NCBI GenBank assembly: GCA_050230475.1
Contig: JBFLGF010000048.1
Coordinates: 1-64,000, forward strand
Source: Ancylonema sp.
Taxonomy: Eukaryota
Length of the DNA: 64,000 bases
Direction: 5' to 3'
The translations under genes and the position numbers were made by a program. Shown piece by piece: positions 7,052 to 35,382 of this stretch (the stretch's first letter is position 1; each line of letters begins with the position of its first letter). Below the pieces are notes generated by a model. That model had not been told where the DNA came from. It did no database searches and worked only from the letters and a program-made list of their open reading frames with translations.

Positions 7052-10000
7052 TCACCCTAGATGGTCGTCCACGTAGTCCGGATTCTGCCTCAAAATCACA
7101 AACCCTTCCAGCACTGAAGTCAACCCAATGTACCTGCGCCCACCCCCCATCCCCATCCCTGTCCCCTGAGCCCCACCCTTGGCAACCTACGGGATCAGGC
7201 ACCTGCTTCTCACAACCAGGCCTCACTTGTTGGTGGCTAGTTCTGCCCGTTCCCCATAGGCCAGCAGCACGGGTGTGGAGTGGGTTTGCCCCCCAGTTAT
7301 CGTATTCGGCCGCCCAGCTTGGCCCACCACGTCCACCGCCATCCCCACCCGCACACTCACACTCAGGGGCTGGAGGCTCTCGTCCACAGTCAGCAACAAC
7401 CGCGGCTGGGGGTTGTGACAGGGACGGTTGTTGTCAGAAAAGACAGAGGATGGAGAGGACAACAAGGATGGCTTGATTGATGTTTTCCTTTTGAACATTT
7501 TTTACTCCTCCCCTAGTGCTCCACCCTCTTCTCACTTGTATAGCAGGAACGAGGTAGTAGAGGGCATAGTGGTACCGTCCCAGTATTATTCCCTTCATGT
7601 CTAAACAGCTGTGCAGAAACGCACTCAAACCTGCCAAGGCCGCACTGCATCCCCCTCCCGACACTTTGTCGAATCACAAAAAAGCTCAACAGCTCAACCA
7701 TGCACTGCCTTCCCCCCCCTCTATTTCTCACGGTGAGCATAGGAATTTTTCGGAGTGGGTGGGGTTGAGAGTTAGTAGTCCCTTGCCCATGTGAGCCAGC
7801 CCCTGTGCGATGCGCACAGCAAACAGGGCACTGGCATCTTTAGCATAGTAGCTACACAGACTGCGCAGCAAGGAGGCAATGCGCGCGTTGTTGGTGCCAG
7901 CACCGATCAGACCCAGACACACCACTGCACCCTGCACTCACAAACAACAAGGACACAGAGCAAATGGTCACCTAATACAGGTGAGGGTTGTTGAGAGAGA
8001 AGCCTGTAATGATGTTATCTGACAACGTGGATGATGTAAAAGAGAATCACAAGACCTGAAGAAACCGAATGAAGGCAGTTATGGTACCACTCATGCATTT
8101 GTACATATTTCCAGCCAACATTGGGACTGAGACCATGAGAGCAAAAGGTTGAGGGTGCCACAAACGACTTTTCCCCGAAAAAGTATTGAGGTACACCATG
8201 TCCCATTCGCTTGGAGCGTTGAAGGTTCAGCGTTTAACATGTAATTCAGGGTTTGTGTATCTGCTCTGAGGTTCCTGACCATGGCCACTTCGGAGTCAGT
8301 GTCGTGCGTCAGTCTGCTGAGTGCGTCCATCACGTTTATCTTTGGGTTCGACACTGCCAGCAGCCCCATGGCCAGAGGCACGGCCCTCCTCACAGGTGGG
8401 TCCCCGTACTGAAGGAGGTGGTGGAGGGAGCGCAGGCACATGTCGGTGCCCACCTCCTCCCCCTGTGCCACCAGGGCCAGTCCCAACACAGCAGCTGCCT
8501 GATGGTTGCTCACACCCTCCTCAGGGAGGTGGTCGCCGCAGAAAGACAGCAGCCACTGGATCTGGAGGAGGCGAAGGATGTGTGGGGTTCAGGGTCGGGC
8601 GCAGCCAACTAGGTGGCCTTTTTCAATGGAATGGTAGCTTTTACAGATTTTCGAGATTTCTGGGTTTTTAGATGTTCAACTTTTCAGGTTTGCCTTTTTG
8701 GGTAACTCCCACATTCACATACATAGTGACAGAGATGCTCTCCACTCCCTTGAATCTGCTATCCTGTACGTGAAACCCTTAACCCATCCCTTTTACCTTT
8801 AGCACGTTCCCAGTCCCTGCATAGGCCAGTGACTCCACTGTGATCTGGGTGTAGAGGCGGATGTGTTTGCTGAGCGTGGCTATCACTGGTAGGATGGCTA
8901 CAACGCCCCCCTGAGTCCCTAGAAACAGCAGGCCCAGCCCCACAGCAAGGTAGCGCGCACAGCACTCCCCCATCTCACTTTCCCGCTCCATCATTGCACT
9001 CAGGATGTGCGTTGCTGCCTCCTCATTGGCCGATCCCACGAACACCAACCCCAGCGCGACAGCTGTGAACCCCACCACGTCCAGGGGCGCCTTGTGGTCC
9101 ACCAGTATGGGGCACAGAAGCGACAAGAGGTCCTCTTTCTGTGACCCGACGTACGCCAGTCCCAACCCCATGATGGCTCCAATGCGCACACTGGTATCCT
9201 CTTTGTCCACCGCCTCCGACAGCAGGGCCATGGCGGGGTCATTGTCGTTGCGCACCCCACAGTTCAGTACCCCCACTGCCAGGTTGGCACCAGCCACAAT
9301 AGCACTGTCCGTGCTGTAGAGGTACTTGTCAATCACAGGGAGGCCCCCGTCCACGTCCCACAGCATAATAAGGCCCTACAAGACAACACCAGAATCGACA
9401 GGGTTGTGAGATCGAGATTGCATGGTGAGGGGTGTTAAGGGGACCATGAGGCTACAAAATTGAGGTTGGGGATTGGTGTTACCAGACTGGCTGTGGCGCT
9501 TATTTTCCCATGGTCCTTGTTCTTAAACAGCCAGTTGCTTGCAGTCTCTGCCTCTCTTCCACACAGCAGCTTGTCCTGAACCCCAAACCCCAGAAACCCC
9601 AGAAATCCCAGACCCCGATTCTGTCAACACCATATACCTGAATTGTGGTCACCCCCGGTCTCTCTGTTCTCCCTCCAGATATTGTAACATAGAGAACAAA
9701 CAAAGAAAATGAGAAAAGGAGAGAATTGTAAATCAAAACCTAAACCTGGATAAGCTGTATCTGTCCTGGATATAGCAGTCTATCTGAACTGCACAGTGTG
9801 TACCTGTCCAAACGCAGCGTTCACGAAGCCGTTGACAAAGGTGGTGGCCAGATTCTGACGCGCTGAGTCCACACTTGGGGCTGAAGACGCCCTACTGTCC
9901 AACAAATGGCTCTGAGGGAGGGGGAAAAGAAGATGTTTCTCCCTTGCTCTCCCACCTATTGCTGTTTGATGCTTGGCGCTAATATTCAAACTGCACCTCA

Positions 10001-12851
10001 ATAATTTCATACCTTCGTACCTTGACCTTCATTCAATTGTGACCTTAAATGATGGGGAAAACTTGAAACATTTATATTCAAGCGCCTCGTATTCTATTTG
10101 TGGCAGTCTAGGGTGATTCCTCCCATAAGTGCAAGCACAAGTTCTCCCCTCATATGACAAAAGTATCTGAATCTATAGATGTGTGTTAAAAGAGATACCT
10201 TGTAGATATCCTCTGCTGTTTTTGGCTCCATGACATCCAGGTCCCTGGCTAGCGTCATATACCCCCCTGTGACGTGGCAATTGTTCAGAATCTCCTGCAG
10301 GACCTCCTGCTCCTCTTCCTCCCCCTTCCACTCTGTCTGCTGGCTGAGGTGGACCACAAACCCCTGACGTGCAATCATGTATGCCAGCTGGCGCGACTCT
10401 ACCCCGGTGGAGGCTGCAAACGTGGACAGCACCAACTGCTCACAGCGCACAGGGCAGGGCTTGTGTGAATATGTATACACAAAGGGAGACATGTGGGGAC
10501 GTACGTGTACGTGCAGATGCTTTATGGTACACATGTTCTGTGGGCGTATGCAGCAGTGTCTAGATACACAATGGATGTACACAAATAAAACTATCAGTCC
10601 AGGAAAGCGTCTCTTACATGTGTATGTATTTTATATGGACACAAAGCCATACATATATTTTCACCTGTTCATCCAGATACGTGTAAACTTTCTCTGCACA
10701 ACAACCCTGTTCCCAGTAAACTTTCGCAAATTGTTGGTGCACCCATACAGCCACAGTAATACCTCCCTCTCACACCAAACCCCATTCTGTCTATGCCATC
10801 TCAGGTGTGGGAGGTGTTTCACCTCTCTGTTGTTCATCCTGAGCGCCAGTTGAATGGCGTCCGTGAGTTTGTTGAACTTGCGGTACAGGTCATAAGCCAC
10901 GCGCAGCACCACCACGTCATCGCCTTCTGATACATAACTGCCACAAACAAATCAACCACTTCTACCCATTCAGGCCGGGCTGCCCAATCGAAACTACATC
11001 TAAATCGCTATCTCTGCAGGTTATATGTACGTATACTTTTTTGCCCATCTTCTCCGTTTCTATCATTTCTGCCACGTCATCATTTCACCCCCCCCTCTCT
11101 GTTGCTGACCTGGCACAGCTGCTGAGATAGAGGCAGGTGCGGCCGTAGTTGGCAGGTGTCACCACATTGATCAGTTTGTCAAGCCTCTCAACCTGCACAA
11201 ACACCACCCCTCAGCTTTTTGTCCTGGAACCCTACATTCTCTTCAGTGCCTTCCTCTCCTTCCCCGCCCACCTCCATCAGCAGATCCACGGCCTCTGGCT
11301 CTGCGTTATGCTGCTCACACCCAAACAGGACACACTCAGAGACTGCTGTCAGGTCGCCACCTGTCCTCCCCCCCACCACCTCACCTCAATGTGGAAGGGT
11401 ACAATCTGGTCTACTAACCCCATCAGGTCCTCCACACTGCCTTCTGCCACCTGTGCACCCACGATGCTAAAGCGCATGAGAGACCTGCCAGAGATGCTGC
11501 CAGGCAACTTCCAGGCAGCTCTCTGCAGCTTCCTGCTCACCATCCTGTGCTGAAACTCTTGCCCTATCTCGCCCGCCAGATTCCTGCAATCCCCAAAGAT
11601 TATTCCAGCACGTTAGCATACCTGTGCCTACCTGCCACCTGGATGCATCCCCCCTGGCCATATACGTACCTCACGTATTCATGGCCCCAAGATCCTAACT
11701 CGCCAGCTGTCCCTAGCAGCCGAAACTCCAAGCTTTCCTGAACCCCGACCAACATATCAAAGGAGGTGGCACGAATTTGAATCCACATCGAGTCATTGCC
11801 ATATGCCATATGACAAAGGCGGATATCCCCTGAACCCTTGCCATCCCCTCGCTTGCTTGGTAACGCATTGGCGGCAACAGAGTGTGTGTGCCTTACCCTA
11901 GCTCCATCTTGAGACATGGTCATAGCCAGCACAGAGATCACATCCGCCAGGAGAGACTGCCAGCCCACCGGGAGAAGAAAACACGTTTGTCAGGTGCATT
12001 GATGAGAGTTTTACTCATCCCATGGCGAGCACTGGACTGATGTGAAGTGCTCACTCTACTGCATCAAAAAAATTGCCAAATTCCTCCATGTGTACTTCCC
12101 ATGACTACAACCAGAGAAGGTCAGCAACAGAGACAGGGTTTGGGTGACACCTTGTTTTCTGCTGCCACTGTGGCATAGGCTGCTTTCAGAGTCACGTAAT
12201 GTGGACGCAGAAACTTCAGTGGTTTGGGAACAGAGGTCATGGAGCTAGTTGCAGTCCGAATCTCCTTCCTGCATGCACACCAGTTACTCATTCTGAGTCA
12301 AGTGAGAGACTCAATGACGTTGCTTCTTATATTCATAGCAACATGATGCTTCTCGGGCACGATCACCCTTTCAACCACCACCAGAGTCGTACAAAGGTTT
12401 CGCATGTGCCATCACCAGCGCAATGTGCTTTGTGTGTGAGGCAAGGTCACCTGTGATGATTTTTGGTTTTATTTATCCTCATACCTTATGCTCTCAAGCG
12501 CCATGTTCTGCACCTGTGCTTCATGGTCCTGGATGCGCTCTACCATCAACTGCAGACCCTCTTTTTGAGCTTGATCTTCAGAACTCTGAACGTAGTAAGA
12601 GAGAGGTCAGTTCAGTGTAAGCATTCCGAATTCAACGGACATATCATGGAAAGGAAGTAAGTAAAACCACTCTTCAGCACGATACTAGTAATGAACAGGT
12701 CGATCCAGACTTTGGGAAGATCGATTGTAAGTGTTACCAACTGATCATCTTTTGGTGGTTCCTTCGCCGCTGACTTCGCCTTTTCAATAGGCATGGTGTC
12801 CTCATCCATCTTCTGAGGCGCACCCGCGGCCTCTTCGGCTTCAATTGCCAT
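7052..12851 (-). CDS. RPN1: 26S proteasome non-ATPase regulatory subunit 2 (RPN1/PSMD2), 19 exons, 891 aa
   Basis: Hand-spliced GT-AG exons: 12851-12738, 12585-12485, 12268-12151, 11956-11897, 11737-11670, 11583-11541, 11450-11385, 11310-11272, 11192-11110, 10937-10823, 10435-10199, 9911-9804, 9575-9483, 9375-8797, 8561-8280, 7931-7732, 7644-7536, 7405-7227, 7133-7052 (2676 nt, in frame). Motifs [82 protein letters not shown]. Confidence 0.96.
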
Positions 12852-16288: not shown

Positions 16289-17780
16289 CCACCCCACTGC
16301 ATCAGAGAGCCACAACCCTCAGAATGTGGGGCCGCACCAGCACCCCTAGGGTGTTGGTCACCTTCTTCTTGAACATGACGAAGTCACCCACGGAGAATGT
16401 GGTCTACGGACGGATGTATCCGCCACCTCGCACGTGCTGAGAGCGATTGCGGTCTCGTTGTTGGGCGATGGCGAGGTTGCGCATGGCCAGGGGCATGACC
16501 TTTTGTAGCACCGCCCCTTGGTGTGCGAGCTGTGTCCATAACTTTTGTATGCCCCCGGCCTAGAGGTCTATCTCTTCCACCTCCAAGTGTTGGATTTGGG
16601 CTAGGAAAAGGGGTTCCCTCCCATACAACATGAAGTAAGGACTGTACCCCAGCGCCTTTTGCTTTCTCATGCGATATCCCATCGCCACGTAGGGGAGTAG
16701 ATTGTCCAACTACTAGCCCTAGACCCCATCTAGCAGACAACGGCGAAGTCCTTGTTTAAGTGTATGCACCGTCCGCTTGAGGGTGCTCTCGAGATGCCAC
16801 CCGATGGGTTGGAGAGGAGAGTCTAGATATCCTCAAGCCTTGTCTTTCTCGGCTAGGGGGATCTGATGGTACCCTTGTCTCAAGTCCAGCTTATTGAATT
16901 TTTTTGCTCCCTGCATGTCCCTAAATATATCGTCGATGCGGGGAAGAGGGTATCGGTCCAGCGGGGATGGGACAATAATCACCACAGTGTCTGTAGTCGG
17001 TATACTCACCAGCCTCGTCCTTCTTTCTCACCACCACTGTCGCTGGCGCGTACTTGCTTTGTTGCGAAGGTCTCATCATCCCCAACGCCTCCAACTCCAC
17101 ACAATGTTTCCCCGAAAATCCCCATTCCGCCGCACTCAACCGATGGGTTGGCGTGAAAACTGCCTTCTTCGTGTCCACCTCTATCTCCATAGGCTCCCCC
17201 TTGTACTCCCCCAACTCCTTCACTGAGAAATCAAACTCACCCCGATTCGCCTCCAACACTCCCACCAACTCATCTTTCCCCGTAGCGGTTAGGTGTGCCC
17301 CCAACTTCCACTTGTACGTTTCTCCCAGCAGCGGCAATGGCCTAACCCTAGGCAGCGCGCTTGGCTAGAAGGGCATCCCTTCCCGTGCCTCTTGATCTTC
17401 TCTCAGCTCCTCCATTGCTAACACTGCCTCTACGTGGCCCCTCGACTGCTCCAACTTTACCTTCTCCATCCAAGTGCTTTGAAAGAGTCCCAATTCCTCT
17501 GGATTGTAATAAAATTCGACCGTCTCCTCCACGAAGTGCATTGCCTCAAACTCCTCCCGTACCCCCCCAATATTCCGCTTCCCCAGTCTTCTACCCACAA
17601 ACCAACGTTTTGGGGTGGGGTGCGGTCCCTATGGAAGGTTGACGGCCACCATGCCTCCCAAGCATGCCATCATGTGACGGTCCATACTCCTCCTGACCAG
17701 CTCGCACCTATCTCCGTGTCAGACACTACAAACTCGGCCGTGCAAATGCCCGGGGCCACTATGGGTGGCGCCCGACCGGG
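16289..17780 (-). mobile_element. Deleted non-chromovirus gypsy pol: putative DNMT C-terminus, linker, RT N-terminus, joined by deletion (~16780) to integrase C-terminal part
   Basis: SKYAPATVVVRKKD..DYR, YPLPRIDDIF, KLDLRQGYHQIP RT; LAMRNLAIAQQRD integrase tail; near-identical to 40084-40549 plus 46031-47060. Confidence 0.85.
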
Positions 17781-17888
17781 ATTGGATCATAGCCGTTCGC
17801 CCTAGTTATTTAAATATTTGCAATTGCGCCCGATTTAAATTTTTGGCACGTGCGGGGGTGTGGCGCAATCGAATGCCAACTTGGAAAT

Positions 17889-17956
17889 TGAGGATATTTC
17901 CACAGAGACCAATTCACCTCACGCGAGGTGAATTGGTCTCTGTGGAAATATCCTCA
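17889..17956. repeat. Perfect 32-bp inverted repeat with 4-nt loop
   Basis: TGAGGATATTTCCACAGAGACCAATTCACCTC-acgc-GAGGTGAATTGGTCTCTGTGGAAATATCCTCA. Confidence 0.97.
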
Positions 17957-18458
17957 CGCGATGCGCTTGCACTCGCAAGACGACAAGACGTCCGCCCAAA
18001 CCGCCGCAACAACCGGAGCAGCTAAGGCCGGAGGACCCTAGGAATTTTTGCTTGCTCAATACAAGGAGTTGAGGGGCGTGCACAGGATCGTTTGGGAGCT
18101 GCTAAAAGGGCGCAGCCGTTAAGCTAGGCGCAAGAGCGCGGAATGCATCACACCCAAAGCTTTGTAGTGCAGATGTGCGTAGGCAAAATGTAAGGTAGGC
18201 CCCCTTTCAACTAGTGTGTCAAGGGTGTCCAGCTCAGTGGGTCCACACCCTTATTTTTGAGCAGCCGCCAAGAATGCTCCAAACCAGCGCATGGTTTTGG
18301 CCATTTGAAGCGCGCCCCAAACGAATTCTTTTTTGGGCCTCTGCGACTTCGGCTATATTTGTGTCGCCCTCACGGTAGCCCACCTACATTTCCTTCACTC
18401 CAACGGCAAGCTCCTCCCACCGATTGCAGACGACGTTGAACACTCGGCCTTCCCGTGG

Positions 18459-20585
18459 TGTAAGGCAGCTCCTAAGCAGGATTGCCTTGCTTATAATAAG
18501 CACAATTACACACATCTCAGAATTCAAGAATAGGAAGAGAATGATGTTCAAAAGACATGAATTGATAAGAGCACTTGAGAGGACACCTCTCAAGTGCTTA
18601 AGTACAAAAGAGATTCACTAAGTGACAGAAAAGCGCGAACACACTAAACGACAAAAGGGTAGGAGTCGGAGAAACTAGAGAGTGAACATATATGACTATG
18701 GTTAACTAACTGAGGTTAGGAACACTCGCTAGCGGAATTAATGCTAGAGAGTGGATCCTAACGGATCCCCCATCAAAAGAAGGCCACGTGTCAGCGAGGC
18801 CGAGCGGATTTTTTTTATGAAAATCAGCGACCGCATCTTTGGTATTGTGCAGTGCACCTGCCGGCTCCCAAGTGCGATCAGATGCATCGTAGCCGAGATA
18901 CTCCAACTTGCGGAAGAGTTTGCGCCGTCGGATCTTGGAGTCCAGGATTGCCCGAACCTCAAACTCTGGAAACCCGTCCACTTGGATGGGGTGAGGAGCC
19001 GGCTGGATGCGTCCCGGGATTGTATTGGGTACATACGGTTTCAGGAGGCTGACATGGAAGACTGGATGGATGTGCATGGTTGTGGGGAGATTGAGTCGGA
19101 ACGACGAAGTACCAACTAGACCAATGACAATGAAGGGACCGAGGCGACGAACATCCAGCTTGGAGGAAGGACGGATTGTTCTGATGTTGCGCCGCAGGAG
19201 CCACACTTGAGCACCTAGCAGGAGGGTTGGGGCAGGCCGACGACGCCGATTGGCTGAAACCTCCATGGCTGTCCGAGCTTTGAGGAGCTCCCGCTGAAGA
19301 ACCACCTGGGCCTGTTGCAGCTGTTTGACATAGGAATCCGCGGCTGGGGTCCTGGAGTCGGGATTGGTTGGGAGAGGGACATGGTGGGGTGGAACCCATA
19401 GTTGGCGAAGAACGGGGACATGGGCCGAGAGTTGTTGTAGCTGAACTCTGCAGAGGGAGGAGGCTGGCCCAGTCGGACTGCTGATAGTGAGTATAGATTC
19501 GTAGATACTGCTCAAGCACTGAATTGAGGCGCTCCGTCTGGCCGTCCGTCTGGGGATGGAAAGCTGTAGATCGGTTGGCCTGAATGCCCAAGAGCGCCAA
19601 GATAAGTCACCAAAAGTATGATGTGAAGATTGGATCTCGATCACTCACGATGTTCTGTGGCAGACCGTGAAGCCGAATCACATGCTGGATGAAGAGTGAA
19701 GCGACGTCCAGAGCTGCCATCGATTTCGTCGTAAGGATAAAGTTTCCGCCTTAGATGAGACGGTCGACGACCACCAGGATTGCATCATGGTAGTGGCTGG
19801 GTGGCAAGTCTGTGATCCAATCCAGGGCGACGTGGGACCAGGGCCTAAAAGGGATAAGAAGGGGGGACAGGAGACCGTAGGGAGCATGTCGCACCACTTT
19901 ATTTCGTGCACATGTGTCACAACTGCCCACGTATTTAGCAACCGCCCCAGCGATTCCCGGCCATGTGTAGTACTGCGCTAGCAGCGCCTGGGTCCTCGCC
20001 ACCCTATAGTGCCCCGCCAACGGGCTGTCATGATATTGATGTAGGAGTTTAAGGACTAGGGTCCTGGAAGTGGGGGGGATGCACCTGACTATACAGCAGG
20101 CCCCCCCTAACCACATACTGACCCCATGAACTGCCCAATGGGCTGCTTGCTGGCAGTGCGGGGTTTGACTCCTTGCCAACTCCTCCCAAAACGATGAGGT
20201 GAGGGGTGTGGAATAGATAGGGAGCTGTGGATGGGGGCGGGAAGATGGGGAGGGAGGGGAGGGGAGGGGGTCCGAGGTTTGGCCGCCGCAACAAAGCATC
20301 AGGTTTACCATTGCTCGCACCTTTCTTGTAGGTGATAGTGTAGTGGTAGGCAGCTAAGGTGGCTGCCCACCGAGCATGTCGCCAGGAGGTAGTCCTGGCT
20401 CTCGAGAAATACTCCAGGTTTTTATGGTCCGTGTAGACTTGAGTAGGGTGTGTCGCTTCCTCCAAGTACACCCTCCAGTGTTTGACGCTGCCACCACCGC
20501 CAGCACTTCCTTATCGTAGATAGGATAGTTTAGTTTTGCAGGTGTAAATTTCCGAGAATAGAAACAGACGAGGTGCAGGGGAGGT
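18459..20585 (-). mobile_element. Chromovirus (Ty3/gypsy, family A) 3' half: RNase H, integrase, chromodomain, PPT, 3' LTR 18459-18762
   Basis: [67 protein letters not shown] chromodomain; PPT GATGGGGGATCC next to the LTR. Confidence 0.93.
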
Positions 20586-21144
20586 AAAACTCATGCCTTT
20601 GTGATTAGGGCAAAACCATTTTCTCTCTGGCACCTTCATCGATGGTGTATCCAAGCACCATATGTGATATCCCTAGTTCCACGTGCCACACAGCACCATC
20701 TTGCTGCCACGGTTTTGCATCCCACACACCCGGCAATGCAGGTTGGGTGCTTTGTAGAAGCGCTCAAGGTACATGTTATGATCCAGAATGGGCAGCTGAC
20801 TGTGCGCGACATTCTTCACTTGCTCCTCAACTCGAGCTACATCACTGCCTTCCAGCACCGCCACTCCCGATGGCTTGATTTCCACCACTCGCAGGATGTG
20901 CGGTCTTGTGGGTACGTCGAAGGTGTCCTGTAGCACTTGTCTCAGCAACACGTAGTCTCCCGGCTTGAAGGTTGCCTTGGGGCGATTCCAGCCCCCTCCC
21001 CTCACCGACCGGTACCGCTCTTTGTCCCGTTGTTGCGCAATGGCCAGGTTCCTCATTGCAAGTGGCATGACTTGTATGTAGAGTTGCATTCTCTCGTTAA
21101 GGAAGACTTGGAGTTTGAATGCCGACACTGTGGGGTCGAGCTCT
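20586..21144 (-). mobile_element. Gypsy integrase C-terminal region ending in a PHD finger (decayed)
   Basis: LAMRNLAIAQQRD...HCRVCG..SKMVLCGTWN*GYHIWCLD.P..KVPERKWFCPNH; homologous to 39782-40306. Confidence 0.85.
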
Positions 21145-22544
21145 TGTCGCATTGTATAGAATCGCATGCCTAGACGAGTAATATCTACCCCCAAGTTGTA
21201 ATATCCCCTCATGAGTAATGTCTATGCATGTCTTCCAATGCGAGGGAAAATGGATGAAAGTGCCAACATCAAAAGTCAAACTTGAGTCACCCCTAAAGGT
21301 ACTCTAGGCTGGTGACAGCCCGAGCAATGTCATTCAGTTGTGAATGAAAATCGATGCGCATAACAGGACGCACATAATATTCGCACATAGAATAGGGGTG
21401 CATGAAATTCTAACGAAGTGTTTAGAGACGCAATGCGTCTTTGAGAGCGATGGGCGAGTACATGTGCGACTGCCTTGCCTAGAATCGGCGCGTGTGCGTT
21501 GACCACAATCATCGGGAATCCCATCAATGAATGGTCCATCCCATGTAAAGTCCCTCGAATCCAAAGTCAACATAAGTCAATACCTGTTAGGACCACACTA
21601 GTGTGTGTCCCTAACTAGAGTGTGTAATCCGCTAGTCCACCCGACCGGGTGGGTGACCACTTAGTTTCGCTTTTACTTTCGTTTCGCTTAGCTTTCAAGT
21701 TTCGCACACTTAGTCATCATTACTACCCGACGTTGTTTCCGTTACCGTATTCGTTCGCTTTGTTCGCTTCATTAGTTACCGTTTTAACATTCGAGTTCCC
21801 TTCGTCCCTAGTTCACCACTAGTACTTATACACGATAAGAACGTCTATTCTCTCGTTCTTATCAACTCATGTAATTTGTGTTCTTTAAGTGTTCCCTTCC
21901 CTATATTCTTTTTTCCGCCACTCGTCCCTCGTTCCCTTTTTCCGTTCATTTTCCCTCTCTCCATTTAAATCCTCTCCTTAAAACCCTCAATTCCATCTAT
22001 CCGCATTAAGTCCATTCCTTACAATACCGGTCTCGGCTATCTATTACAACTAACATGTGTAAAATGTGGTAGATCTTGTGTACGCATGTCGTATCCCCAA
22101 CATCACCGCCAAACTCACTATAGGCACACTTGCGCTCGCCTTAAAGGAAAATATGACAGCGCCTACTCGTGTATATGCTACCGATTCCTCACAACACGAG
22201 AGCTGCCGCATTGTATAGAATCGCATGCCTAGAAGAGTACTATCTACCCCCAAGTTGTCATATCCCCTCATGAGTAATGTCTATGCATGTCTTCCAATGC
22301 GAGGGCAAATGGATGCAAGTGCCAACATCAAAAGTCAAACTTGAGTCACCCCCCCCCTGGAGAAGAGGAAAGCTCCCGCGTCCACCTCTACGTACAGACG
22401 CAATGCGTAGGGGTTGTTTGGCGAAGTCATCACCCTGGTGGCTGATCAATATACAACACAAAACAAGGAGTAAGTCATCACCCTCAACCCATAGTGCAGG
22501 TGGGGAATGGCCAAACTCCCCACCCGCAAAGAGTCAAAGGTAAC
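21145..22544 (-). repeat. Partial terminal repeat of the PHD-gypsy lineage, interrupted by solo LTR-B
   Basis: Colinear with 38524-39462, including the ~150-bp internal direct repeat starting TG(T/C)CGCATTGTATAGAATCGC. Confidence 0.7.
21585..22023 (+). repeat. Solo LTR, chromovirus family B
   Basis: TG...CA ends, perfect 5-bp TSD ATACC, homologous to 56070-56548. Confidence 0.95.
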
Positions 22545-22689
22545 GAAAGTGTCATGCCATAAACACTCGTGTGCTTATACGATGCCAATAAGGCGGTCAA
22601 CTCACATGGTACGGGTTGATGGTGCTTCTGACGACCAAATCCCTTCGGAGGAGGACAAAGAAGATGGCTACCATTGAATCCCACACCAG

Positions 22690-23092
22690 ATGGCAGCCAT
22701 CCGCCTACGAGTAGTTGAACTGCAAGTGGTGGTGGCCAGCCACCGTACACGACGGGAGAACGCCGTTCTTCGCCTCCAACAAGCCAAGCAACTCCATCCA
22801 GAACCCATCCACCCGACTTCGTCTTGGGTGGGGCAAGAGATGTACAACGCAATCCCAATCAACACGGCGACACGTCAACTTGCGCCCAAGTTCATTCAAG
22901 ACGGTCTCCATGTAGTGGACCTGTTTGGAGGGATTGGATTGGGAGTATTACGGTCTTCCTTGGCTGCCGGCCACCAGATTCGATGCTATACGTACGTCGA
23001 CAAGGATGACGTGAGCAAACGCGTGGCAGTTGCAGTTCTGCACAAGCTTCAAAATCAGTTTTCAGACCAGCTGCCGGACACAGCCATCCAAG
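22690..23092 (+). pseudogene. Truncated N-terminal half of a Dnmt3-like cytosine-5 DNA methyltransferase domain within a retrotransposon pol
   Basis: GLHVVDLFGGIG (motif I, FxGxG SAM-binding) then AAGHQIRCYTYVDKD (motif II acidic residue), spacing as in Dnmt3 (IRVLSLFDGI...LGIQVDRYIASE). Confidence 0.8.
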
Positions 23093-23915
23093 GAGTGGCT
23101 GGTTGTCCCTTTTGGCCTGACAAATGCGCCCCCCTACTTCCAACGGCGAATGGATAACATTCTAAGAGATCTCCCCTTCTCCACATGCTACATTGATGAT
23201 ATCATCGTGTGGTCCAAATCAACGGAGGAGCACATCCAACACTTGGAGGAGATTTTCAAGCAATTGCGGGAAGCAGGCCTTAAAGTGCATCCGGGAAATT
23301 GTGTCTTCCGAGAAGACGTCATGACTTCCTAGGACATCGCATTTTTGCCGACTCTTTGCAGCCCCAAGAGGAAAAGTTGGCAGCAGTTCGGGACTTGCCA
23401 GCACCCACCGACCTCCACAGCCTGCGTGCAACCTTGGGCTTCTTCTCCTACTACCGAAATTTTGTGCTGCACTTAAGTTCCATTGCCCACCCCCTCAACT
23501 AGCTGCTGAAAAAGGATGCACTGTGGCAGTGATACGACAAACAAGAAGAGGCATTTCAGAAACTCAAGTTGCAGCTGTGTTAGTCTCCCGTGTTGCAACT
23601 GCCAAACGCATACAAGCCTTTTATCCTCACGACGAACTGGAGCCACAAGGGGATGGGAGCGGTGCTGAGCCAACTTGATGAAGAAGGCGTGGAGCATCCA
23701 ATCTGCTATGCATCACGTTCTTGCAACCCTCCTGAGCATAACTATTCCTCCTTCGATGGTGAATGTCTGACGGTGGTGTGGGCCACCAACCATTTCTAGG
23801 CCTATCTCTTCGGTAACTCCTTCACCTTGGTCACCGATCACGAGCCCCTCCGATGGCTGATGACTGCATAGAAGTTGACCGGGAAAATGGCAAGGTGGAG
23901 CCTCCTACTCCAAGA
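23093..23915 (+). mobile_element. Gypsy RT core and RNase H, joined by deletion to the DNMT fragment
   Basis: EWLVVPFGLTNAPPYFQR, CYIDDII, FLGH, LGFFSYYR, GMGAVLSQ, ICYASR, TLVTDH. Confidence 0.93.
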
Positions 23916-24391
23916 AAAATGCTCCCATCCTGAAGTGGAGCCGGGGAGAAACTCCCATCTACCTCACGGTAGATTTACATCACGGGGGTATCCGCAGGAA
24001 TTCATTATTTATTCATAGGTTAGATTTTGTATTTTTTTCATTTTAGGTAGCGGCGTTGGATGGATTTTATTTTTTGGGGGTCTAGCATGCTGAACCAACG
24101 TGCATAGAAAATAAAACATTAATTGAAAGAAAAGGAGATATTGGAAAGTCAAACGATATGGTTTGTAATACCGGGGGTACTCAACTTTATATAGCTACAA
24201 TAATCACTGAGGGTATTGCGCCACGCGCAAAACGGGCAACCAACAACTAGTGTCCTCATGAAATTTCTCGACATCATGCTCGTCTTTTCGATGATACATC
24301 ACAAGCAGAGTGTTGTCCAATATTTCCTTCACCGATATCTAACAACATGTGTGCTTTTGTGTTACGACCGCAGCTCAAAGAGCTCTAAGAC

Positions 24392-24940
24392 TTGCTTTCA
24401 CGCAACAATCATTCGACACAAGAGGCATCTGATGAAAAACGCCAATTTGAGATTCGTTTCGACGCACTCGTCACCACTATCGAGGAAACCGATACACCAT
24501 CTTTGGTGCTCCTTGTTGCTCCGAAAGAAGCTCGACCTCTTGTTCCTGCATTTGATCTTGCCGCCACCGATACTGCATCGATGTCACAATCCTTGTGTCC
24601 ACAACCCATGGAGGAATGCAAACCGTCTCCTCCTGCGGCGGCAATCCTCGCTTCTACCACACCTTTCAATCCTCCTCTTCTTGTGGTTGCACCCGTGGAT
24701 CGTGTTGATACTCTGTGGATTGTTCCTACCCTCGATAATTCCAGGTTGGTCCTCACCATTTTTGGGCATGGTCCTCCCAAGCCTATCCTTGACACTAGTG
24801 CCAAACATGTTATGGTGGGTATGAACTTTGCCAAACAAATTGGGCTGATTGGTTCCAAGTTACATCCGGGAACAAAATACATCACAGCACCCGGTGCCAT
24901 TGAACGAACCTTAGGCAAATCCAAAGAAGCAACAAACTCA
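24392..24940 (+). pseudogene. Retrotransposon aspartic protease remnant
   Basis: PILDTSAKHVMVG..FA.QIGL resembles the D-T/S-G-A protease motif with G>S. Confidence 0.55.
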
Positions 24941-26850: not shown

Positions 26851-29800
26851 AAATTGTGCTTAATATAAGCAAGGCAATCTTGCTTAGGAGTTTCCTTACA
26901 CTTTGATAAGAGAAAAAAATTCAGTTTTTGAATTCAACATTCATTACACTTCACAAGTCATATTTATGGCTGATTCAAATGATATTTTTCAAAACCTTAA
27001 TGAACACGGAGTTCAGCCACAAAATCAGGCACCCATCTCCAATCCAGCACCCCCACAACCTCCCCCCCCGGATCTGCCTACTCCTGAACCACTCCCCTTT
27101 TTGGGAGACCCTACAAATTTTGCTCGGTTTCAGCTTAAATTGATTCATTTTTTCTACAATCATGATACTTCTTTTCCTACTCCCTTCACTTGGGTTATGT
27201 TTACGCTAACTAAACTCGAGGGAGCTCCTGACAAATGGCTACTGAATCATGTCCATCCGACACGAACCTACTCCCCGCAAACTGGGATTACATGGAGGTC
27301 CTCTCAGAATTGCGGCTTTTTTTCGGTGGGGCTGCCACACTTCAGTCCCACGAACGTGACCTGCGTACCCTTCGACAAAACGGTTTTGTGTTAGACTTGG
27401 CTATTGCCTTTCAGACTATAACCCAGTCCTTTAACCCACGCTAGGGTGACCATCCTCTCATTTTTATCTTTTCAGAAAAGTTGAAAGAAAATATACGATT
27501 TGAGCTTGCGGCCAGGGGTGCCATACCTGCCAAATTCTCGGAGTACGTGAGTGCAGCCATTGCGGTGGAGCAAAATTAGGCTGCAGCGGTTCTCTCCAAA
27601 ACCCAGCAGCAACCTCGCTCTCCCTTTTCCCCTTAGCCCAATAAGCCTCCTTCCCCTCCCCTTCCGTTTCCCCCGTCACCCCCTCCTCTCTCCCACCATG
27701 TCCCCATGGATCTGGATGCTACCCGAGGTCCCGAGGCCCACTCACCCTTGATGAACGTCAACGCCGGGCTGCCACGGCTTGTGTGGTTATTGTGGTCAGT
27801 CGGGCATCTCATTGTTGCCTGCCCCGCTGCCTCCCGCGTGGCCCTCGTCTACAAGCCAGATCTGTTCAGCCCCTCCCCCAAAACCCGTATTACTCGTCGG
27901 CAAGTTTTCAGCCCTTACTTGCTGCCTACAAGTATATGCCAGCCCCACAAGGACCTTTTCCGGGTCCCTGGATGGCCCTTCCCTCTCCCCACACCTCCTT
28001 CAACCCACGTGCCCACCAGCCAAAAAACGATCAGCCAACCAGCCAGTAGGGGTCTAGGTGGGTGGCTCTCTCCCAATCCCCACACCCCTTCCCTATCCTC
28101 AACCTTGCATTTGTCTCTTCTAGTCCACCTCCTCGTCCCCAACCACCCTCCTATACCTGTTCGGGCGTTAGTCGATTCTGGCGCCTCGGCTAGTTTTTTG
28201 GATCCTTCCCTCCTCCACCAATACAACCTGCACCCTCTCCCCCACCCTCAGCCCATCCCTGTGCAGTTAATTGACGGCAGCAGTCCATCTACAGGACCCA
28301 TTACCCACTATTTCCGAGCCCACCTTCGGGTTCATGCCAGCCATTCCGAACACCTTTTCAGCTTACCCCCCTCGCTCATTTCCAGTTGGTGCTGGGTTTT
28401 CCTTGGCTGGCCCGCCACAACCCTCGTATTGACTGGAGTTTGGCAGGGTACCCTCATCTTTGCCTCTCCTTTTCGTTCTACCACCTGCCTCTTCCCTCCC
28501 CAAACACCCCTCCCCTTTCCCCCCCCAACCTCTGTCTCCCAGGGAGACACAAAAGAACCACCCAGGGTTCCCAGACAACCTGCACCGGAGCAAACACAAG
28601 AACCTCCGAAGGAGCACCCGCTCCACGCTCCTTCCGTGCCACCCCTCTCCCACACCCTCGCAGCCACCTCCTCTCCCAACCCCCCTTCCCCTCCGTCCCT
28701 GTCTTCTTTCCCTCCTCTTCTTCCCACCCCCCAACCTAATCCCTCCCTCTACGCCAAAATTCCCCAAGAATACCATGACTACCTGGACGTCTTCTCGGAG
28801 GCCCAGGCCAACGTCCTTCCTCCCCACAGGAAAGTACCAGTACGACCTGGAGATCCCTCTACAACCCGGCACGGCTCCACCCTCCCATCTACCCCATGTC
28901 TGCCCCAGAATTGGTTGAGATGAAAAAGTATGTCAAAACGTACCTCGCCAATGGCTTCATTCGGCCCTCCAAGTCGCCTGTAGCTGCTTCTGTCATGTTC
29001 GTCCAACGGCCCGATGGCAAGCTGCGGCTGGTTGTGGACTTCAGGGGGCTCAACAAGGTTACTGTTAAAAACCGCTACCCCCTCCCCCTCATACCTGAAA
29101 TGTTGGATCGTCACAAGGCCAGGATCTTCACAAAGAATTGACCTCAGGAATGCATACACCAAGTCAGGGTCAAGGAGGGGGATGAATGGAAAACAGCATT
29201 CTGATGCAAGGAGGGGCACTTCGAATATCAAGTGTGCTCCCAATGTTAGGGGCGACGAGATGGAAGAGACGCACCTAGCTATAACGATAAGCATGTTCAC
29301 AAGAGAGCGGAAAGGGAATGGGAATGATGGGTAATCAAGGGGTGAACTACATGAGTTGATTGGAGCAACTATAAGGTTGCTCCTATCGAGTATCTATACT
29401 AGGAATGAAGGTGAACACTAGACACACAATATGGGATAACTGAACTCGATATAACGATAGCTTACTCGGTATAGCAATAGATAAGCTCTCAAGGGAAAAC
29501 ATCACTCTAAATGCACACTCGCTATAAGAACAACTGAAACTCTAGAGGCACTCTAGTGCGAGTAGGCACACTCGTGGGAACACTAGTGACTAAAGAGAGT
29601 GGAGCCTAACACCCAAGGATCTACCAATGCGCCAGCCATGTTCCAGCATTTCATGAATGACATTCTCAAAGATTTTATGAGAGAGTACCTGGACCTCATC
29701 GCGGTGGGTATCCTCGATGACGTCATTGTCTTCTCTGAATCGCTCTCTGATCACGTTCTCCACGTGCGCAGCATTTTGGAGATCCTGCGACACCACAAAC

Positions 29801-30190
29801 TGTATGCAAAAGTGGAAAAATGTGAGTTTCACAAGGACCAGATGACCTTCGTCGGGTATCTGGTCTCAAGCATGGATCCAACTAAGGTTTCGGCTGTACT
29901 GGATTGGCCTACCCCTAAAACTGTGAAGGAAGTGCAATCTTACCTGGGATTTGCTAACTTCTACAGAAAGTTCATCAACAACTACTCTGCCCTCACTACC
30001 CCTCTCACCTCCCTTACCCACAAAAGCACCCAAATTTGTCTGGTCTCCAGAGGCGGAGGCGGCCTTCAAAACTCTGCAGCAGGCCTTTACAACAGCTCTC
30101 ATTCTGCAACACTTTCAGCCAACCCAGCCCCTGACAATCGAAGCAGACGCCTCCGACTTCGCCCTCGGCTACATCATGTCTTAGCCCTCG
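26851..30190 (+). mobile_element. Chromovirus family A 5' half: LTR end (26900), PBS, gag, protease, RT, start of RNase H; frameshifted
   Basis: ...CCTTACA then CTTTGATAAGAG; PEPLPFLGD gag; ALVDSGAS protease; GKLRLVVDFRGLN, NAPAMFQ, ILDDVIV RT. Confidence 0.92.
29244..29611 (-). repeat. Solo LTR, chromovirus family C, inserted in RT
   Basis: TG...CA, perfect TSD CCCAA, homologous to 60084-60453 and 56580-56882. Confidence 0.95.
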
Positions 30191-32659
30191 GCCTTTTCCA
30201 ACAAATCACTACACGGGGGAAATTCTGACTCCAGTCAGCCTCCAAGCCATGGTTGTGTATGGAGAATGCCCTTTGCGGTCCGTCTGCTTCAGATGAAGCA
30301 CTTGCGTCTATGTCTAGTGAGTAGAACAAGTGAGGTGGTACACCCATCGTTCGGTAATTCATGGGATCCAGGTGAAATGACACCCAGACTTGGGGGGAGG
30401 TTCACACACAATGACTAGAAAATACTTGTGTCATTGGGCAACCTCATGTATTGATCATCAATGACATATGTTGCAGGTCTCAACACTACTGTGTGAGACG
30501 TCGCCAACAAACACACTTGGGCTGTGCCACCTACTCGTGAGGAGTCGGACCCAGCCAGCATTGGGGTTGGTGTGCAATAACAAACATATTATTGCGGATG
30601 TGGAGACAATTTGAGTTGGAGTCATGACCCATCAATATGAATTGGCAGCGATCGTCACCATGTCATTCAATGGACACCCAAGTACAATTATGGTACACGA
30701 ATTCTCATTTGACATGAAATTCAATTGAAATTATTTTAAGCCACACCCTTATGACACAAGGAGACTCCAAGACATTTGCAAAGATTTCGGCGCGGGAGCA
30801 TGCCTTAGCTTTGGGGGGGGAGTTAGATCATGTTGTCATTTTTTGGCATGTGTGACCCCATACTTAGGGTATGGGAGAGGCTAGAGATGTTTTCAATGAT
30901 ACCTCACGCGTGTGAGAAGAGCCATACTTGTACATTTTGACCATTCGAGATGGATCATTTATAGTATTATTGGTGTGCACATGTGTGTCCATGACACGAT
31001 TCTATTCGGTACGACACATACTAAGAGTGCCGGGACGCTTATTAAGTGTTCGCTATGCCACACGTGCGAGTTGGAACGTGTGAGGTGGAATTCGGTATAG
31101 ACGATCTAGACGTTGTAAGAGGAATGAAGCCACGCGTGTGAGGGTGGTGTATTAGTGGTGTAGAGTCTACAATGCTAGCTTGCACGACAATTGTTATGTC
31201 ATATGCCTATACGGTATTAGTTTGCCGGTTAAATAACCTGCATGACGGCATAGTTGTACCTTCGGCTTATTTCGAGCAAAATGCACAACTAGTTGCAAAA
31301 TGCACTTTTGGTTGTGAAACGCATGTTTAGTTTAGTTTCGGAAAAACTCGATCTAAATTGGATTCGGGAGTTGGTTTAAGTTGTTCTTATAACGCGTAGT
31401 GACTTTAGTCTAGAGTACAATCATGACTTAGAGTCAGTCGTTTTAAACAAAAAGACGGAACGCGCGAGTGTTGGCATGATATGGGCAGCTATTGATTAAA
31501 CGGTCCCGCTAAGGGTGCGGCATCCCACGGATCTAGAGGGGCCACGAAATAATAGTCCCCCGAACAAAGTCGACCATTTGATCCATGCAACCTCGAATCA
31601 GCATGGCAAATACTTCAAACATTGTTGTGCAATTCGACCAAAAAACGTATAAGTGAAGGACAACTGAACTTGAGTCAAAATGGTGCGGCAGGTCGTGAAT
31701 TTCGAGGCAATCTTTCATGTTATTAAAGACACTCTTGCATGGGCTCACGCAGGGGAGCTTTACTTCTCTATGGGTGGTAGTTCAATATGTTTAATTTGCT
31801 AACGATTTGAGAACGATTTCAGATGCAAGGTGCATGAGGATGGTGTGGGTATAGTGTTCCCTCTTAGGTCAAGGTTGTACCACCTTGTACCACACGAGTG
31901 TGAGTGGCACGTGTGAAGCGTTGGGTTGTGTACCGCCGTAGGGCTCAACATGCTTGAGTTGGCACATGTGAAGTGGATGGCAGTGCATTGTGATAGTTAC
32001 AGCAGTGGCCACACATGTGAGGTGGGTGTTGAGACGATATGGTGAAATTAGTACGCGTGAGTTAGAGTATGCTATAACGAACGGCATGGCATATATAATG
32101 AGTGACTTGCTTTGTTATCTCCCCGTTTTTGGTCGATGTCTGCACATGTTATACCTTGACCTGACTCTATGAAGGCAAATATCAATTCTGACTACATGCA
32201 ACATGGTAAGTTGTGCCCATGCAAGTTCAATTTGGTGAGAGGTAGTTTGTTTCCGCCATTTTGGTGCGTACATCTCCAATCACAATCGTGATGGAGCGGG
32301 AAGTGCAACAGTGTCACTTCAGATAAACTTTGTATTGTGCTATTGATTTGATTGCCTTGGTAATTCATGTGTTTATATATTAGCACACTCCATACTCATG
32401 TGTGAAATCCATAATTCATTATTTGATTGCAAACTTCAATGGCTCTTTCGAAACATTTCTCATGTCCATAATATTTGTGTCAAAATATTTTTTCTTGTCA
32501 TACCTCCACAAGTCTTTGATTATTTCTTCAAACATCAGCTCAAACTTGACAATAGCACTAGCAATGTGATCTTGTGATAGATACACAGAAGTGGAAAGAT
32601 TCTTAAGAGATTGAAAACTTAAAGTCCTTGTGTTTCTTCCCCTTTCCTTCTTAAGAGAT

Positions 32660-35382
32660 TTAAAACTTGAAGTCCTTTTGTTTCTTCCCCTGTCCTTCTT
32701 TGTCATTTGCCTTCCTCTTCCTTTGCTTCTCCCTCTGCAACACATGAGCGGTGTGTGTCACCCTCCCTTCTTGGTCCATCCTCCCCCACTTACTTCCCTT
32801 CTCACCTCTGCCACCAAGTCGCTAAAATCTTCCCTCTCTGGACCCTTTTCCACTCGAGCTGCCTCAAACCTGCGCCCTTGCACCCAATCCTGTCACACAT
32901 CCATCCCTTTCCTGCCCATCCATACCAACCCCCCCCTCTATTCACTTTGCTCTGATGGCTGCGTCGTTCAAATCATCCAGCTCCTCTGGCCTCAGTGTGA
33001 TGTCCACCGGGGCTGAGGCCTGGCTCTTATGCACCGCCGCCTGCCCACCCACCGCCCTCTACCCACCTTAGCATCCTACAGGTGTGCCCATACACTTGGC
33101 TGGTCCCCACTCACCTTGGCAGCTGAGGTGGCTGCTGCCCCTGGTACCACATACCTGCACCACTCCCCACACCCCACACGGAAATCAGCTTTCATTCCAG
33201 CTAGAAGAGGGGCCATGGGGTGGGTATGCTCACGGTGGGTAGACCCCATGAGTGTGCCTGAGGCAATGCGCTCCTCGCGCTGCTCCAGCACTGTGTACAG
33301 CTCTGCCCCACTGTCCTTGCGCTGACCCTTGCGAAGGTCGATCACGTCTGGGGTCTCCACCCCAGTGGGCGTCCTGTATCCACACGCAACCACTCAGATG
33401 GACTTCTTCAACTACCATCTATGTTTCCCTCCCCCCCCCTTACGATGAGATGGTATCTACAGATGCCATGCCGGCTGCAATGTCTTCTGGTGCCAGCACT
33501 GTAGCCTCCTCTTCCTCTTCCTTCTCTTCCACTTCCTCCTCTTCCTCCTCCTCCTCTTCTTCTTCTTCTACCTCCAGATCTCCCCAGTGGGCTGTCTTAT
33601 TCACTGCCTCTTCCTCGTACTCCTCCTCTGCCACTTCCTGTGCTCCAAACACATCGCCATACAGGGGGCGACCAAACTCATCCACGGGCGGCTTCCCCCA
33701 TCCTCCAATGTGGTACCCAAAAGAGGAGCCGTAAGGGATGGGGGCGTTGAGTCCAGGGATTTTCAGGTGTGGGTAGGAGGGTGGGGGCCCATATCTTTGC
33801 ATGTTGATGAGCCAGGGCGATGGGGAGCCGTCGGTCATGCCCAGCGCCTCCCTGAGGTCGCGTGATATGTACCCGGGCTTCATGTCACGCAGCTTGGCTT
33901 CGAACTCCTTCCCCTCGTGGTACAGCTCGCCCAGCAGCGTGAGTTTGGGCTTGCTCTGGAAGCGGAAGAAGGCGTCGTGCAGCACCTGGTAGTCGATGTC
34001 CATCTTGCCCATCTTCGGCTGCATCTTCTCGCGCTGTTTGGCCTTCAGCTTCTTCGAGTCCTCCTTCTCGACGTACGCCTGACGAATCTTCTCGATCCCT
34101 GTGGCAGCAATGAAGTCAGGCAGCTGAAATGGGGTCTTCTCAATCCCCCTCTTCCCCTGAAGGAACTTGCGCTTCTGGCTCCAGTGACGGGGCACAGGCA
34201 CAGAGTTGCGGTACGCCTTCAGGAACACCAGCAGACGCGGGTCAGCCGCGGTGGCATCCCACACCTCGACCACGTCTGGACGGGCGCAGATCTGCTTCAG
34301 CTCGGCCACCTTCATGCGGCGCTGAAGCTTCTTCTTCTTATTGGACATGGAACCATCCAACTCATTCTCCTCCCCACCCTCCTCATCGCTGGAGTCTGCA
34401 TCTCTCCATGATGCCATTCCTGGCCGCCCCCACCTCCTCATCGGTCGCCCCCTCCTCCTGTCCTCCACCACAACTATTCTCAATGAAAATCCAGAGCTGG
34501 GGTTTCATTTTTGGGTGAGTAGGAACACAACATAAGGGACCTTGGTCTCTTCTTTTTCAACTTTAAGGTCAGGGTTTCACATTCAGGTTTTAGGTTCCAG
34601 GTATCTGATTGCAGGTTCCAGGCAACACGCTTCAGATTTCAAGCTACTCCCTGGGGTTGCAGGTTTTAGGTACAGGGGAAAGAGAGTGTAAGACTTTTGA
34701 CCACATATTTCCCAGTTTCCGTTCCCGATTCAAAAATATGTTAAACTAGAAATCCCAGTGCGGCGTGCAATAGGGGTAAGGCGCACTGGTTGGGAGAGCT
34801 GCGTCGTGAATTTTTTAAACACTCTCAAAAAGTCTTCATAGCCGGCATCTGCAGCAGAAGTGGGATCAATGACCGGAGCTTCAGCCACATACTCTATTTC
34901 TATGCTGGTAGGTACCTGACACACCAAAAAAAAAAAGAAGAGGTTAATTCCCTTACGAGGGTGCGATAGAGGAACTCTATTATGCAAGAACAAAGTGGAT
35001 AATGAAGGTAGTTATGATGCAGGCCCGAGCCAATGACGCTGTAATGACAACAAAATTGTAACTGGCGTGAACTAAAGTGCAATTGCCAGCTTCCCAATTA
35101 CGGGGGTGCGTCTAGCTTATTGTCAAAAACTGTGTCGAACGATGGACTGGAAGTCCCCGGACGCATCCGAAGTGATAACCTCACCTCCTCCACATTTCGG
35201 TCACCGTCGCCTGCCTTGAAAGGCTCTTCATCATCTCCTCCGACTCTATGAACTGCATGCGTCCCCTTCTTCTTCTGCTTCCGTCTCCGACGTCGTCTTT
35301 CAACCTCATTTTCTTTACCACTCTGCTTTTGGACTGCATCTACAGTTGTCCCAGCGCCTGTACCATCTGATTTAACAGCCAT
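32660..35382 (-). CDS. SF3B2: Splicing factor 3B subunit 2 (SF3B2/SAP145/CUS1), at least 8 exons
   Basis: Exons approx 35382-35185, 34915-34787, ~34457-33444, 33373-33234, 33154-33115, 33040-32946, 32869-32806, 32734-32660. Motifs PDVVEVWD..A.DP.LLV.LKA.RN.VPVPRHW, MDIDYQVLHDAFF, PWLINMQRYGPPPSYP.LKIPGLNAPIP, GGWGKPPVDE, EDFSDLVAE, KDFKF*. Two junctions have unresolved phase. Confidence 0.93.

Follow-up and report, generated by a model that had tools for sequence, protein, structure and literature searches.

A fossil gypsy retrotransposon copy that joins a Dnmt3-like methyltransferase fragment to reverse transcriptase, and the probable two-ORF family to which it belongs

The window, meaning the whole 64,000-nucleotide stretch of DNA that was analysed, holds on its forward strand a locus in which part of a cytosine DNA methyltransferase (DNMT) runs directly into a gypsy reverse transcriptase (RT). 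The features of this locus and its immediate 3' neighbourhood are the following:

22600-23094, + strand: linker between protease and DNMT, then the first (N-terminal) third of a Dnmt3-like C5 methyltransferase (homology; 81.7 bits with our own profile)
23092-23095, + strand: deletion junction, out of frame, with 2 letters common to both sides
23093-23323, + strand: back half of a gypsy RT, with YIDD at 23189-23200 (RVT_1, E 6e-19)
23323-23950, + strand: RT thumb and RNase H, truncated before the integrase (RT_RNaseH_2, E 3.4e-22)
24674-24934, + strand: protease fragment of a related element, 3' of the DNMT-RT locus (33-40% identity to the proteases of P0003, P0007 and P0014)

The C5-methyltransferase motifs I and II that the original prediction had placed in a forward ORF were found there. 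ORF 22678-23157 (+), which follows a stop codon in the protease-DNMT linker (22675-22677), reads LHVVDLFGGIG (motif I) at 22906-22938 and IRCYTYVDKD at 22978-23007. The fragment retains motifs I-III, and motifs IV-X are deleted. In a comparison with proteins it matched 11 of 188 candidates (P0001-P0011) with 54-75% identity and a best E of 5.6e-34, and PF00145 was present in 7 of these 11. The check proposed with the prediction, a scan of the fragment alone against DNA_methylase (PF00145), gave no match at E up to 0.05. The DNMT homology runs out at 23094-23097, which corresponds to about position 66 of a DNMT profile 327 positions long. Since the alignment to P0003 (1204 aa) breaks off at residue 937 and the RT-side alignment to P0184 begins at residue 235, the deletion at 23093 should span about 500 codons or more (some 1.5 kb or more), with about 267 codons of the DNMT and about 234 of the RT ORF missing. 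These alignments bear out the predicted internal deletion near 23093. The further claim, that the DNMT abuts RT and RNase H, held only in part: both lie on the same strand, with RT homology from 23093 and RNase H 3' of it at about 23584-23916, but the DNMT and RT frames differ at the junction, and the RT-RNase H part carries a frameshift near 23320 and five stops. Because motifs IV-X are deleted, the locus can make no methyltransferase; judged by its reading frames, it is a fossil able to encode neither the DNMT nor the RT enzyme. As to family identity and architecture, we regard it with high confidence as a defunct Ty3/gypsy retrotransposon copy with an internal deletion.

The protein relatives of the two halves of the locus form two sets. 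On the DNMT side, the longest relatives (P0003 and P0007) combine a zf-CCHC zinc knuckle, a protease and PF00145, and the ORFs of P0003, P0005 and P0006 all end 4-6 residues past the DNMT domain, at the same point after motif X. On the RT side, 58 of 71 candidates matched, the best 50 of the 58 with 65-84% identity; seven of the 58 are RT-RNase H-integrase-PHD proteins of 966-1091 aa that have neither a protease nor a DNMT. The Gag-protease-DNMT and RT-RNase H-integrase-PHD sets complement each other, which argues for two separate ORFs in the intact family. Intact members are therefore likely to read Gag, zinc knuckle, protease, DNMT, stop, RT, RNase H, integrase and PHD. We infer that ORF1 and ORF2 stand on one element from the way they complement each other and from degenerate copies that belong to a more distant subfamily.

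The domain order protease-DNMT-RT-RNase H-integrase-PHD that the original prediction had assigned to the intact element is found complete on two metagenome loci, L001 and L003, which also present protease, RT, RNase H and integrase in the order of Ty3/gypsy elements; in the nearest relatives, though, a stop ends the ORF after the DNMT domain, so that the order would be divided over two ORFs. The expectation of copies with a catalytic PC motif in frame with RT was not borne out by these relatives, in which motif IV reads WECQ, with E where C5 methyltransferases usually have P, and PF00145 was found in 0 of the 58 RT relatives. DNMT and RT share one ORF only in more distant relatives, for example P0052, P0163 and L065. 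No DNA locus of the nearest relatives was obtained from metagenome contigs with P0005 as query, nor from prokaryote genomes with alignment A1; a search of viral contigs with P0197, P0003 and alignment A1 confirmed one stretch and recovered no locus.

Further pieces of the family lie elsewhere in the window:

16290-18512, - strand: second degenerate copy, of another subfamily, from DNMT C-terminus to integrase C-terminus
20586-21155, - strand: integrase C-terminus and PHD finger (20735-20600, one stop), 47-67% identity to 7 whole ORF2 relatives
21145-22544, - strand: 3' end of a family element, comprising 3' region, polypurine tract and LTR 22348-21145 (sequence comparison)
21585-22023, + strand: solo LTR of another high-copy element, inside LTR 22348-21145, with TG...CA ends and target duplication ATACC
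38524-40552, - strand: continuation of the third copy, with integrase C-terminus, PHD, 3' region, polypurine tract and LTR (homology)
40560-46030: degenerate copia element inside the third copy, LTRs 40560-41021 and 45565-46030, 90% alike
46031-47767, - strand: third copy, a duplicate of the second, with DNMT C-terminus, stop and RT front (homology)

The motif IX/X fragments and PHD fingers that the prediction had drawn upon are real, but they are parts of other copies on the opposite strand. In the second copy, DNMT motifs IX-X (18512-18254, -) are followed by a TAA stop (18253-18251), the front of RT (17343-16836), a deletion, and the integrase C-terminus (16809-16290); the roughly 0.9 kb between the DNMT stop and RT gave no protein match beyond its two edges. 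The third copy has its motif IX/X-like fragment at 47767-47506 (-), a PHD finger at 39958-39833 (-; PHD, E 1.8e-6) and, after integrase-PHD, an LTR at 39269-38524 (-) with a 145-nt repeat at either end. DNMT and RT are collinear in both copies, as had been anticipated for further copies of the element, and in both the DNMT terminates where those of P0003, P0005 and P0006 do. The two lie in a 3.8 kb duplication (16755-20503 and 46031-49745, 29.2 kb apart, 91% alike and 98-100% in parts) and, being products of one duplication, are not two independent witnesses. They represent a more distant subfamily, with 42-64% identity to the nearest ORF2 proteins over RT and integrase. The integrase-PHD piece at 20586-21155 belongs to the same subfamily as the RT at 23093, on the opposite strand. 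In both second and third copies, one chromodomain gypsy element adjoins the DNMT C-terminus upstream.

LTRs with TG...CA ends and a polypurine tract were found twice, at 22348-21145 and 39269-38524 (-). The former starts with TG, ends with CA and carries at either end a 145-nt repeat, the two being 96% alike; the solo LTR inside it is accompanied by a near-empty-site joint (21570-22024) in 4 of 4 sequencing runs. The 145-nt repeats are 96% alike within one copy as against 86-90% between copies, and 90% alike within the other copy. Concerted change of the repeats, seen in one copy and not in the other, is therefore no proof. All 5' ends of family elements have been lost within the window. By CpG depletion, the element could not be told apart from a host exon. 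A DIRS identity was considered and rejected, the family having a DDE integrase.

The metagenome search confirmed 322 stretches, from which 80 loci (L001-L080) were kept. The DNMT lies on the RNase H side in 55 of them and on the protease side in 8, with 17 unplaced. In the 8 protease-side loci, the ORF breaks between DNMT and RT in five, runs through both in one (L065), and cannot be followed in two from which RT is absent. The break is an in-frame TAG in all five cases (L001-L004 and L047). In four of them the TAG is followed by CAR-YYA, and the fifth reads TAG TAG CCA; the background frequency of CAR-YYA after TAG was 27 in 4537 TAGs overall. The five loci are relatives, with 66-91% mutual DNA identity, and so count as one origin. 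UAG-CAR-YYA is the tobamovirus type I readthrough signal (PMC3542737), and the exact motif stands at the DNMT/RT border of these four sister-lineage loci. The window's own copies differ from the viral signal, with TAA GGG TGT after the DNMT of the second and third copies and no readthrough motif. We predict that the second ORF of the sister lineage is made via UAG-CAR-YYA readthrough. In the window's lineage and the sister lineage alike, the DNMT stands on the Gag side of the stop.

What kind of enzyme the domain represents was judged from its motifs, profile scores and fold. P0003, P0005 and P0007 score above the cut-off for PF00145, and the DNMT motifs are not permuted, in contrast to those of DRM. 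By sequence search alone, HaeIII, DRM, HhaI and DNMT3 score alike and weakly, with no preference for DNMT3, and the Atlas's second cluster for the DNMT is viral. The designation Dnmt3-like therefore rests on the fold search, in which the predicted structure of P0005 (pLDDT 81) gave Foldseek matches that, among those listed, were all DNMT3A/B/C (best E 3.4e-15). All 42 full DNMT domains recovered with the loci retain the catalytic C, the EN of motif VI and the RxR; C and RxR formed part of the search patterns, and EN did not. Across the family, motif IV reads ECQ in 43 and PCQ in 26 of the 73 loci where it can be read. The dN/dS ratio was 0.04-0.30 in the 7 measurable pairs out of 861, none of them from the window's own lineage. 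In motif I (FxGxG), the last glycine is a cysteine in 25 of the 42 full domains. For the PHD finger, the nearest solved structures include MLL3, ATXR5, BAZ2B, KDM5B PHD1, KMT2D and WSTF. The fingers of ATXR5, BAZ2B, KDM5B PHD1 and WSTF are readers of unmodified H3 tails, and several of the MLL3, ATXR5, BAZ2B, KDM5B and KMT2D fingers bind H3 that is unmethylated at K4.

With P0005 as query, a wider search at E up to 0.001 yielded 1158 representatives, and the best 150 of them were taken. In a set of 174 proteins, the DNMT was on the protease side in 21, between RNase H and integrase in 66 and ambiguous in 1; 81 were DNMT-only and 5 had no DNMT match. The position was checked by Pfam on 30 of these proteins. 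Of 20 representatives checked, four could be assigned to an organism: Closterium NIES-53 and NIES-65, with the DNMT on the protease side, Scenedesmus PABB004, with the DNMT on the RNase H side, and Cymbomonas. K. nitens had no name match among the 20. A quick DNMT tree of 108 rows, which excludes pieces shorter than 280 aa and four near-copies, places all 65 RNase H-side DNMTs inside one 85-row clade (support 97) and the window's kin in a clade of their own (support 99). The position classes separate again in a tree of RT-RNase H (47 rows, among them 2 outgroup rows and 26 of the 50 RNase H-side rows, with the window fragment excluded as too short); here too the window's kin group in a clade apart (100), without being resolved as sister to the other protease-side elements. 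A single origin followed by relocation and two separate captures would fit these trees equally.

Several individual elements deserve mention. At L071:9428-12514 (37% GC) a protease is followed by a DNMT in four pieces over 2.5 kb, and the interruptions could be introns, as in a domesticated copy, or decay. The contigs of L005 and L065 have identical 122-127 bases at start and end, as in circular or collapsed whole elements. Protease and RT ORFs lie in different frames in the RNase H-side elements L005 (4314-4326), L015 (1115-1148), L019 and L050, which suggests that such elements use a frameshift after the protease instead of readthrough. In P0050 and P0123, a G-patch domain lies between DNMT and integrase.

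Many divergent copies of the family exist. In run X1 the summed depth over the DNMT part was about 1,900 against about 10 for the exact unique flanks, a figure that is not a copy number, and 35 contigs of this run have a different letter at 23030. The unique flank 23871-24280 was matched without mismatch in the ice metagenome run X3. Very high summed depth was also seen at 22550-22650, with many joints at 22549-22559, just before the DNMT linker; these joints are perhaps the end of another high-copy element. Two host genes were recognized:

8094-10630, - strand: exons of the host gene for a proteasome regulatory subunit (matches to PC_rep and HEAT), which we take to be RPN1-like
33443-34504, - strand: host SF3B2, a long single exon (DUF382, PSP)

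SF3B2 shares 78-85% identity with its best land-plant matches and 71% with K. nitens. In a quick tree of 25 rows, none of them a zygnematophyte, it groups with land plants and leaves Klebsormidium outside (support 92). The host thus appears to be a streptophyte nearer to land plants than Klebsormidium is; together with what is known of algal ecology, this makes a glacier alga among the zygnematophytes the likely host.

The explanation that best covers these observations is a two-ORF family, Gag-protease-DNMT and RT-RNase H-integrase-PHD, in which the DNMT marks the element's own new DNA copies. To this explanation as a whole we assign a probability of about 0.6. The sequences themselves show the domains and their order, the stop after the DNMT, the conserved catalytic residues and, for one relative, a predicted Dnmt3-like fold, whereas enzyme activity and target are inferred. 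Made together with Gag, the DNMT would be packaged in the particle and freed by the protease, and because it is made with Gag it should be far more abundant than RT and integrase. The second ORF would be expressed only sparingly; for the sister lineage (L001-L004 and L047) the predicted route is UAG-CAR-YYA readthrough. After reverse transcription, the DNMT would methylate the cDNA, probably at CG. The PHD finger of the integrase would bind an H3 tail, predicted to be unmethylated at K4, and so lead insertion away from active promoters, and the new copy would arrive pre-marked with 5-methylcytosine and be hidden or kept quiet. Self-methylation of the cDNA was put forward as a hypothesis by the 2018 study of a comparable element (PMC5890265). 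Taken by itself as the job of the DNMT, it is a tentative assignment, which we hold to be slightly short of an even chance.

The best-placed alternative concerns that job: the DNMT might act in the nucleus on chromosomal DNA, i.e. on older copies, on competitors or on the element's own LTR, and in this way limit harm to the host. Self-limitation is raised as a possibility in the text of PMC5890265, a Gag-level amount of enzyme would exceed the need of one cDNA, and the conserved catalytic residues and apparent purifying selection fit this role equally well. We nevertheless consider it unlikely, since the domain lies within a protease-processed polyprotein, and since most loci in the family (55 of 80) place it between RNase H and integrase, with the cDNA machinery.

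Somewhat less probable is a different origin of the locus itself, in which the join at 23093 would be a chimera or an assembly error between two elements and not a deletion within one copy. Fragments of either orientation are heaped up in this region, the join does not keep the reading frame, and among the longest assembled pieces listed for the four sequencing runs no contig spans it. Against this, both halves come from a family with DNMT before RT, and the neighbouring join near 23950 is confirmed by exact-match contigs in 3 of 4 runs. Even if the join were artificial, the conclusion at the level of the family would stand.

Less credible again is the notion that the domain does not methylate DNA at all, and instead binds DNA or RNA or methylates RNA, with WECQ as the mark of a changed activity. 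It takes its support from the E that stands in motif IV in place of the usual P and from the inactivity of the Klebsormidium domain in yeast (PMC5890265). In that same yeast test, however, DNMT3B failed too (PMC5890265); some members of the family have E and others P, with C, EN and RxR invariant throughout, and the predicted fold of P0005 matches DNA-acting DNMT3. The idea of a host DNMT3 or DRM gene fragment lying by chance next to a retrotransposon can be rejected as very improbable, because the fragment is intronless, lacks the permutation of DRM and starts within a protease-DNMT linker, its long relatives are Gag-protease fusions, collinear copies occur in the window, and L001 and L003 carry the complete order.

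If the two-ORF family with a self-marking DNMT is extended to all its relatives, it is tempting to speculate that Dnmt3-plus-PHD gypsy elements are an old and wide family of chlorophytes and streptophytes instead of a peculiarity of Klebsormidium. The DNMT would sit at one of two places, at Pol level after RNase H or at Gag level after the protease and before a stop (with UAG-CAR-YYA in one lineage), in the latter case abundant in the particle and methylating the cDNA before PHD-guided integration, with its dose an evolving trait set by recoding. To this broader proposal we give somewhat less credence than to self-methylation as such.

The kinship with Dnmt3 retrotransposons of charophyte algae that the original prediction had pointed to is a fair proposal. 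KnitGypsy-Dnmt3 of Klebsormidium nitens is a gypsy element with Dnmt3 (de Mendoza et al. 2018, PMC5890265). As described there, it has in common with the window family that it is a streptophyte gypsy LTR element whose Dnmt3-like domain lacks introns and permutation and retains the catalytic residues. For the purifying selection on its DNMT, the low dN/dS of 7 pairs of relatives may be the counterpart here. Set beside it by this published description, the window family would work in the same way. The differences lie in the placement of the DNMT, which KnitGypsy-Dnmt3 has in its Pol ORF together with RT and RNase H and which here ends the Gag-protease ORF; and in the host, K. nitens there and another streptophyte here, with the 71% SF3B2 identity given above. 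The terminal repeats of KnitGypsy-Dnmt3 are DIRS-like (A-coding-B-A-B), and the 3' B-A-B shape that occurs twice here is reminiscent of them. Among fetched loci at least 6 kb long, comparison of each with itself revealed no full A-coding-B-A-B. The main text of PMC5890265 has 0 mentions of a PHD finger; its figures could show one. Because DNMT and RT are not in one ORF, we keep the window family apart from KnitGypsy-Dnmt3 proper. The K. nitens enzyme gave no methylation in yeast, a result that its authors called inconclusive (PMC5890265).

Dinoflagellates have SymbioDIRS-Dnmt3 as well as SymbioLINE-Dnmt, of which those of DIRS type methylate CG de novo in yeast (PMC5890265). Retrotransposon-borne cytosine methyltransferases and the coexistence of two domain orders are common to them and to the present family, but they are tyrosine-recombinase or LINE elements as described in the same paper; the window family, for its part, encodes a DDE integrase and shows a polypurine tract and TG...CA ends. 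The EpiLTRs of Cymbomonas and Euglena likewise unite a methylation writer and a chromatin reader on each LTR element (bioRxiv 10.64898/2026.05.21.726589); by that account theirs are an enzyme related to DNMT4, an adenine methyltransferase and a chromodomain, as opposed to Dnmt3-like and PHD here, and the same 2026 preprint gives Gypsy-DNMT3 for streptophytes only. Gypsy-7a_cRei of Chlamydomonas is also a green-lineage gypsy element with a PHD finger and LTRs that have sub-parts, and together with other PHD-bearing Chlamydomonas gypsy elements it shows a bias to intergenic insertion (PMC9940879). It differs in that the text of PMC9940879 reports no methyltransferase for it and the figure legend puts its PHD before the integrase. 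PHD fingers on retrotransposons are described as widespread (PMC6673714, PMC9940879).

In the literature searched, which was short on subscription papers, Repbase and theses, a search for this type of element matched PMC5890265, bioRxiv 10.64898/2026.05.21.726589 and PMC6453930; PMC12344493, PMC11244446 and PMC6338049, as far as their text goes, cite the 2018 work on Dnmt3 retrotransposons without addition. The same search found no Dnmt3-plus-PHD gypsy outside Klebsormidium, no Gag-side DNMT, no pair of alternative DNMT positions, no readthrough at a DNMT/RT border, and no mention of the Closterium, Scenedesmus and Cymbomonas relatives or of the present host. The kind of element is already known from KnitGypsy-Dnmt3 (PMC5890265), and the host, the named relatives, the DNMT positions and the readthrough signal are apparently unreported.

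The 2018 study of transposon-borne cytosine methyltransferases, in its text, records no activity for the gypsy enzyme (PMC5890265). Intact versions are now available as the ORF1 and ORF2 proteins of the window's lineage and as the whole elements L001 and L003. With such intact, apparently selected versions and with relatives in culturable algae (Closterium, Scenedesmus and Cymbomonas), self-methylation of the cDNA becomes directly testable. Natural comparisons would be those of Gag-side with Pol-side versions and of WECQ with WPCQ versions. If the host is a zygnematophyte, Dnmt3-gypsy elements extend to the algal sisters of land plants.

The rest of the window is also rich in repeats. Chromodomain-type gypsy elements lie in both orientations at 18709-20510, 48028-49808, 26888-30225, 53033-55521 and 56867-59562; we considered these chromodomains as part of the DNMT element and rejected the idea, as they belong to separate chromoviruses. 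Further copia pieces occupy 593-3063 and 63297-64000, and a G-rich tandem array at 50905-52189 consists of units of about 83-89 bases with higher-order periods.
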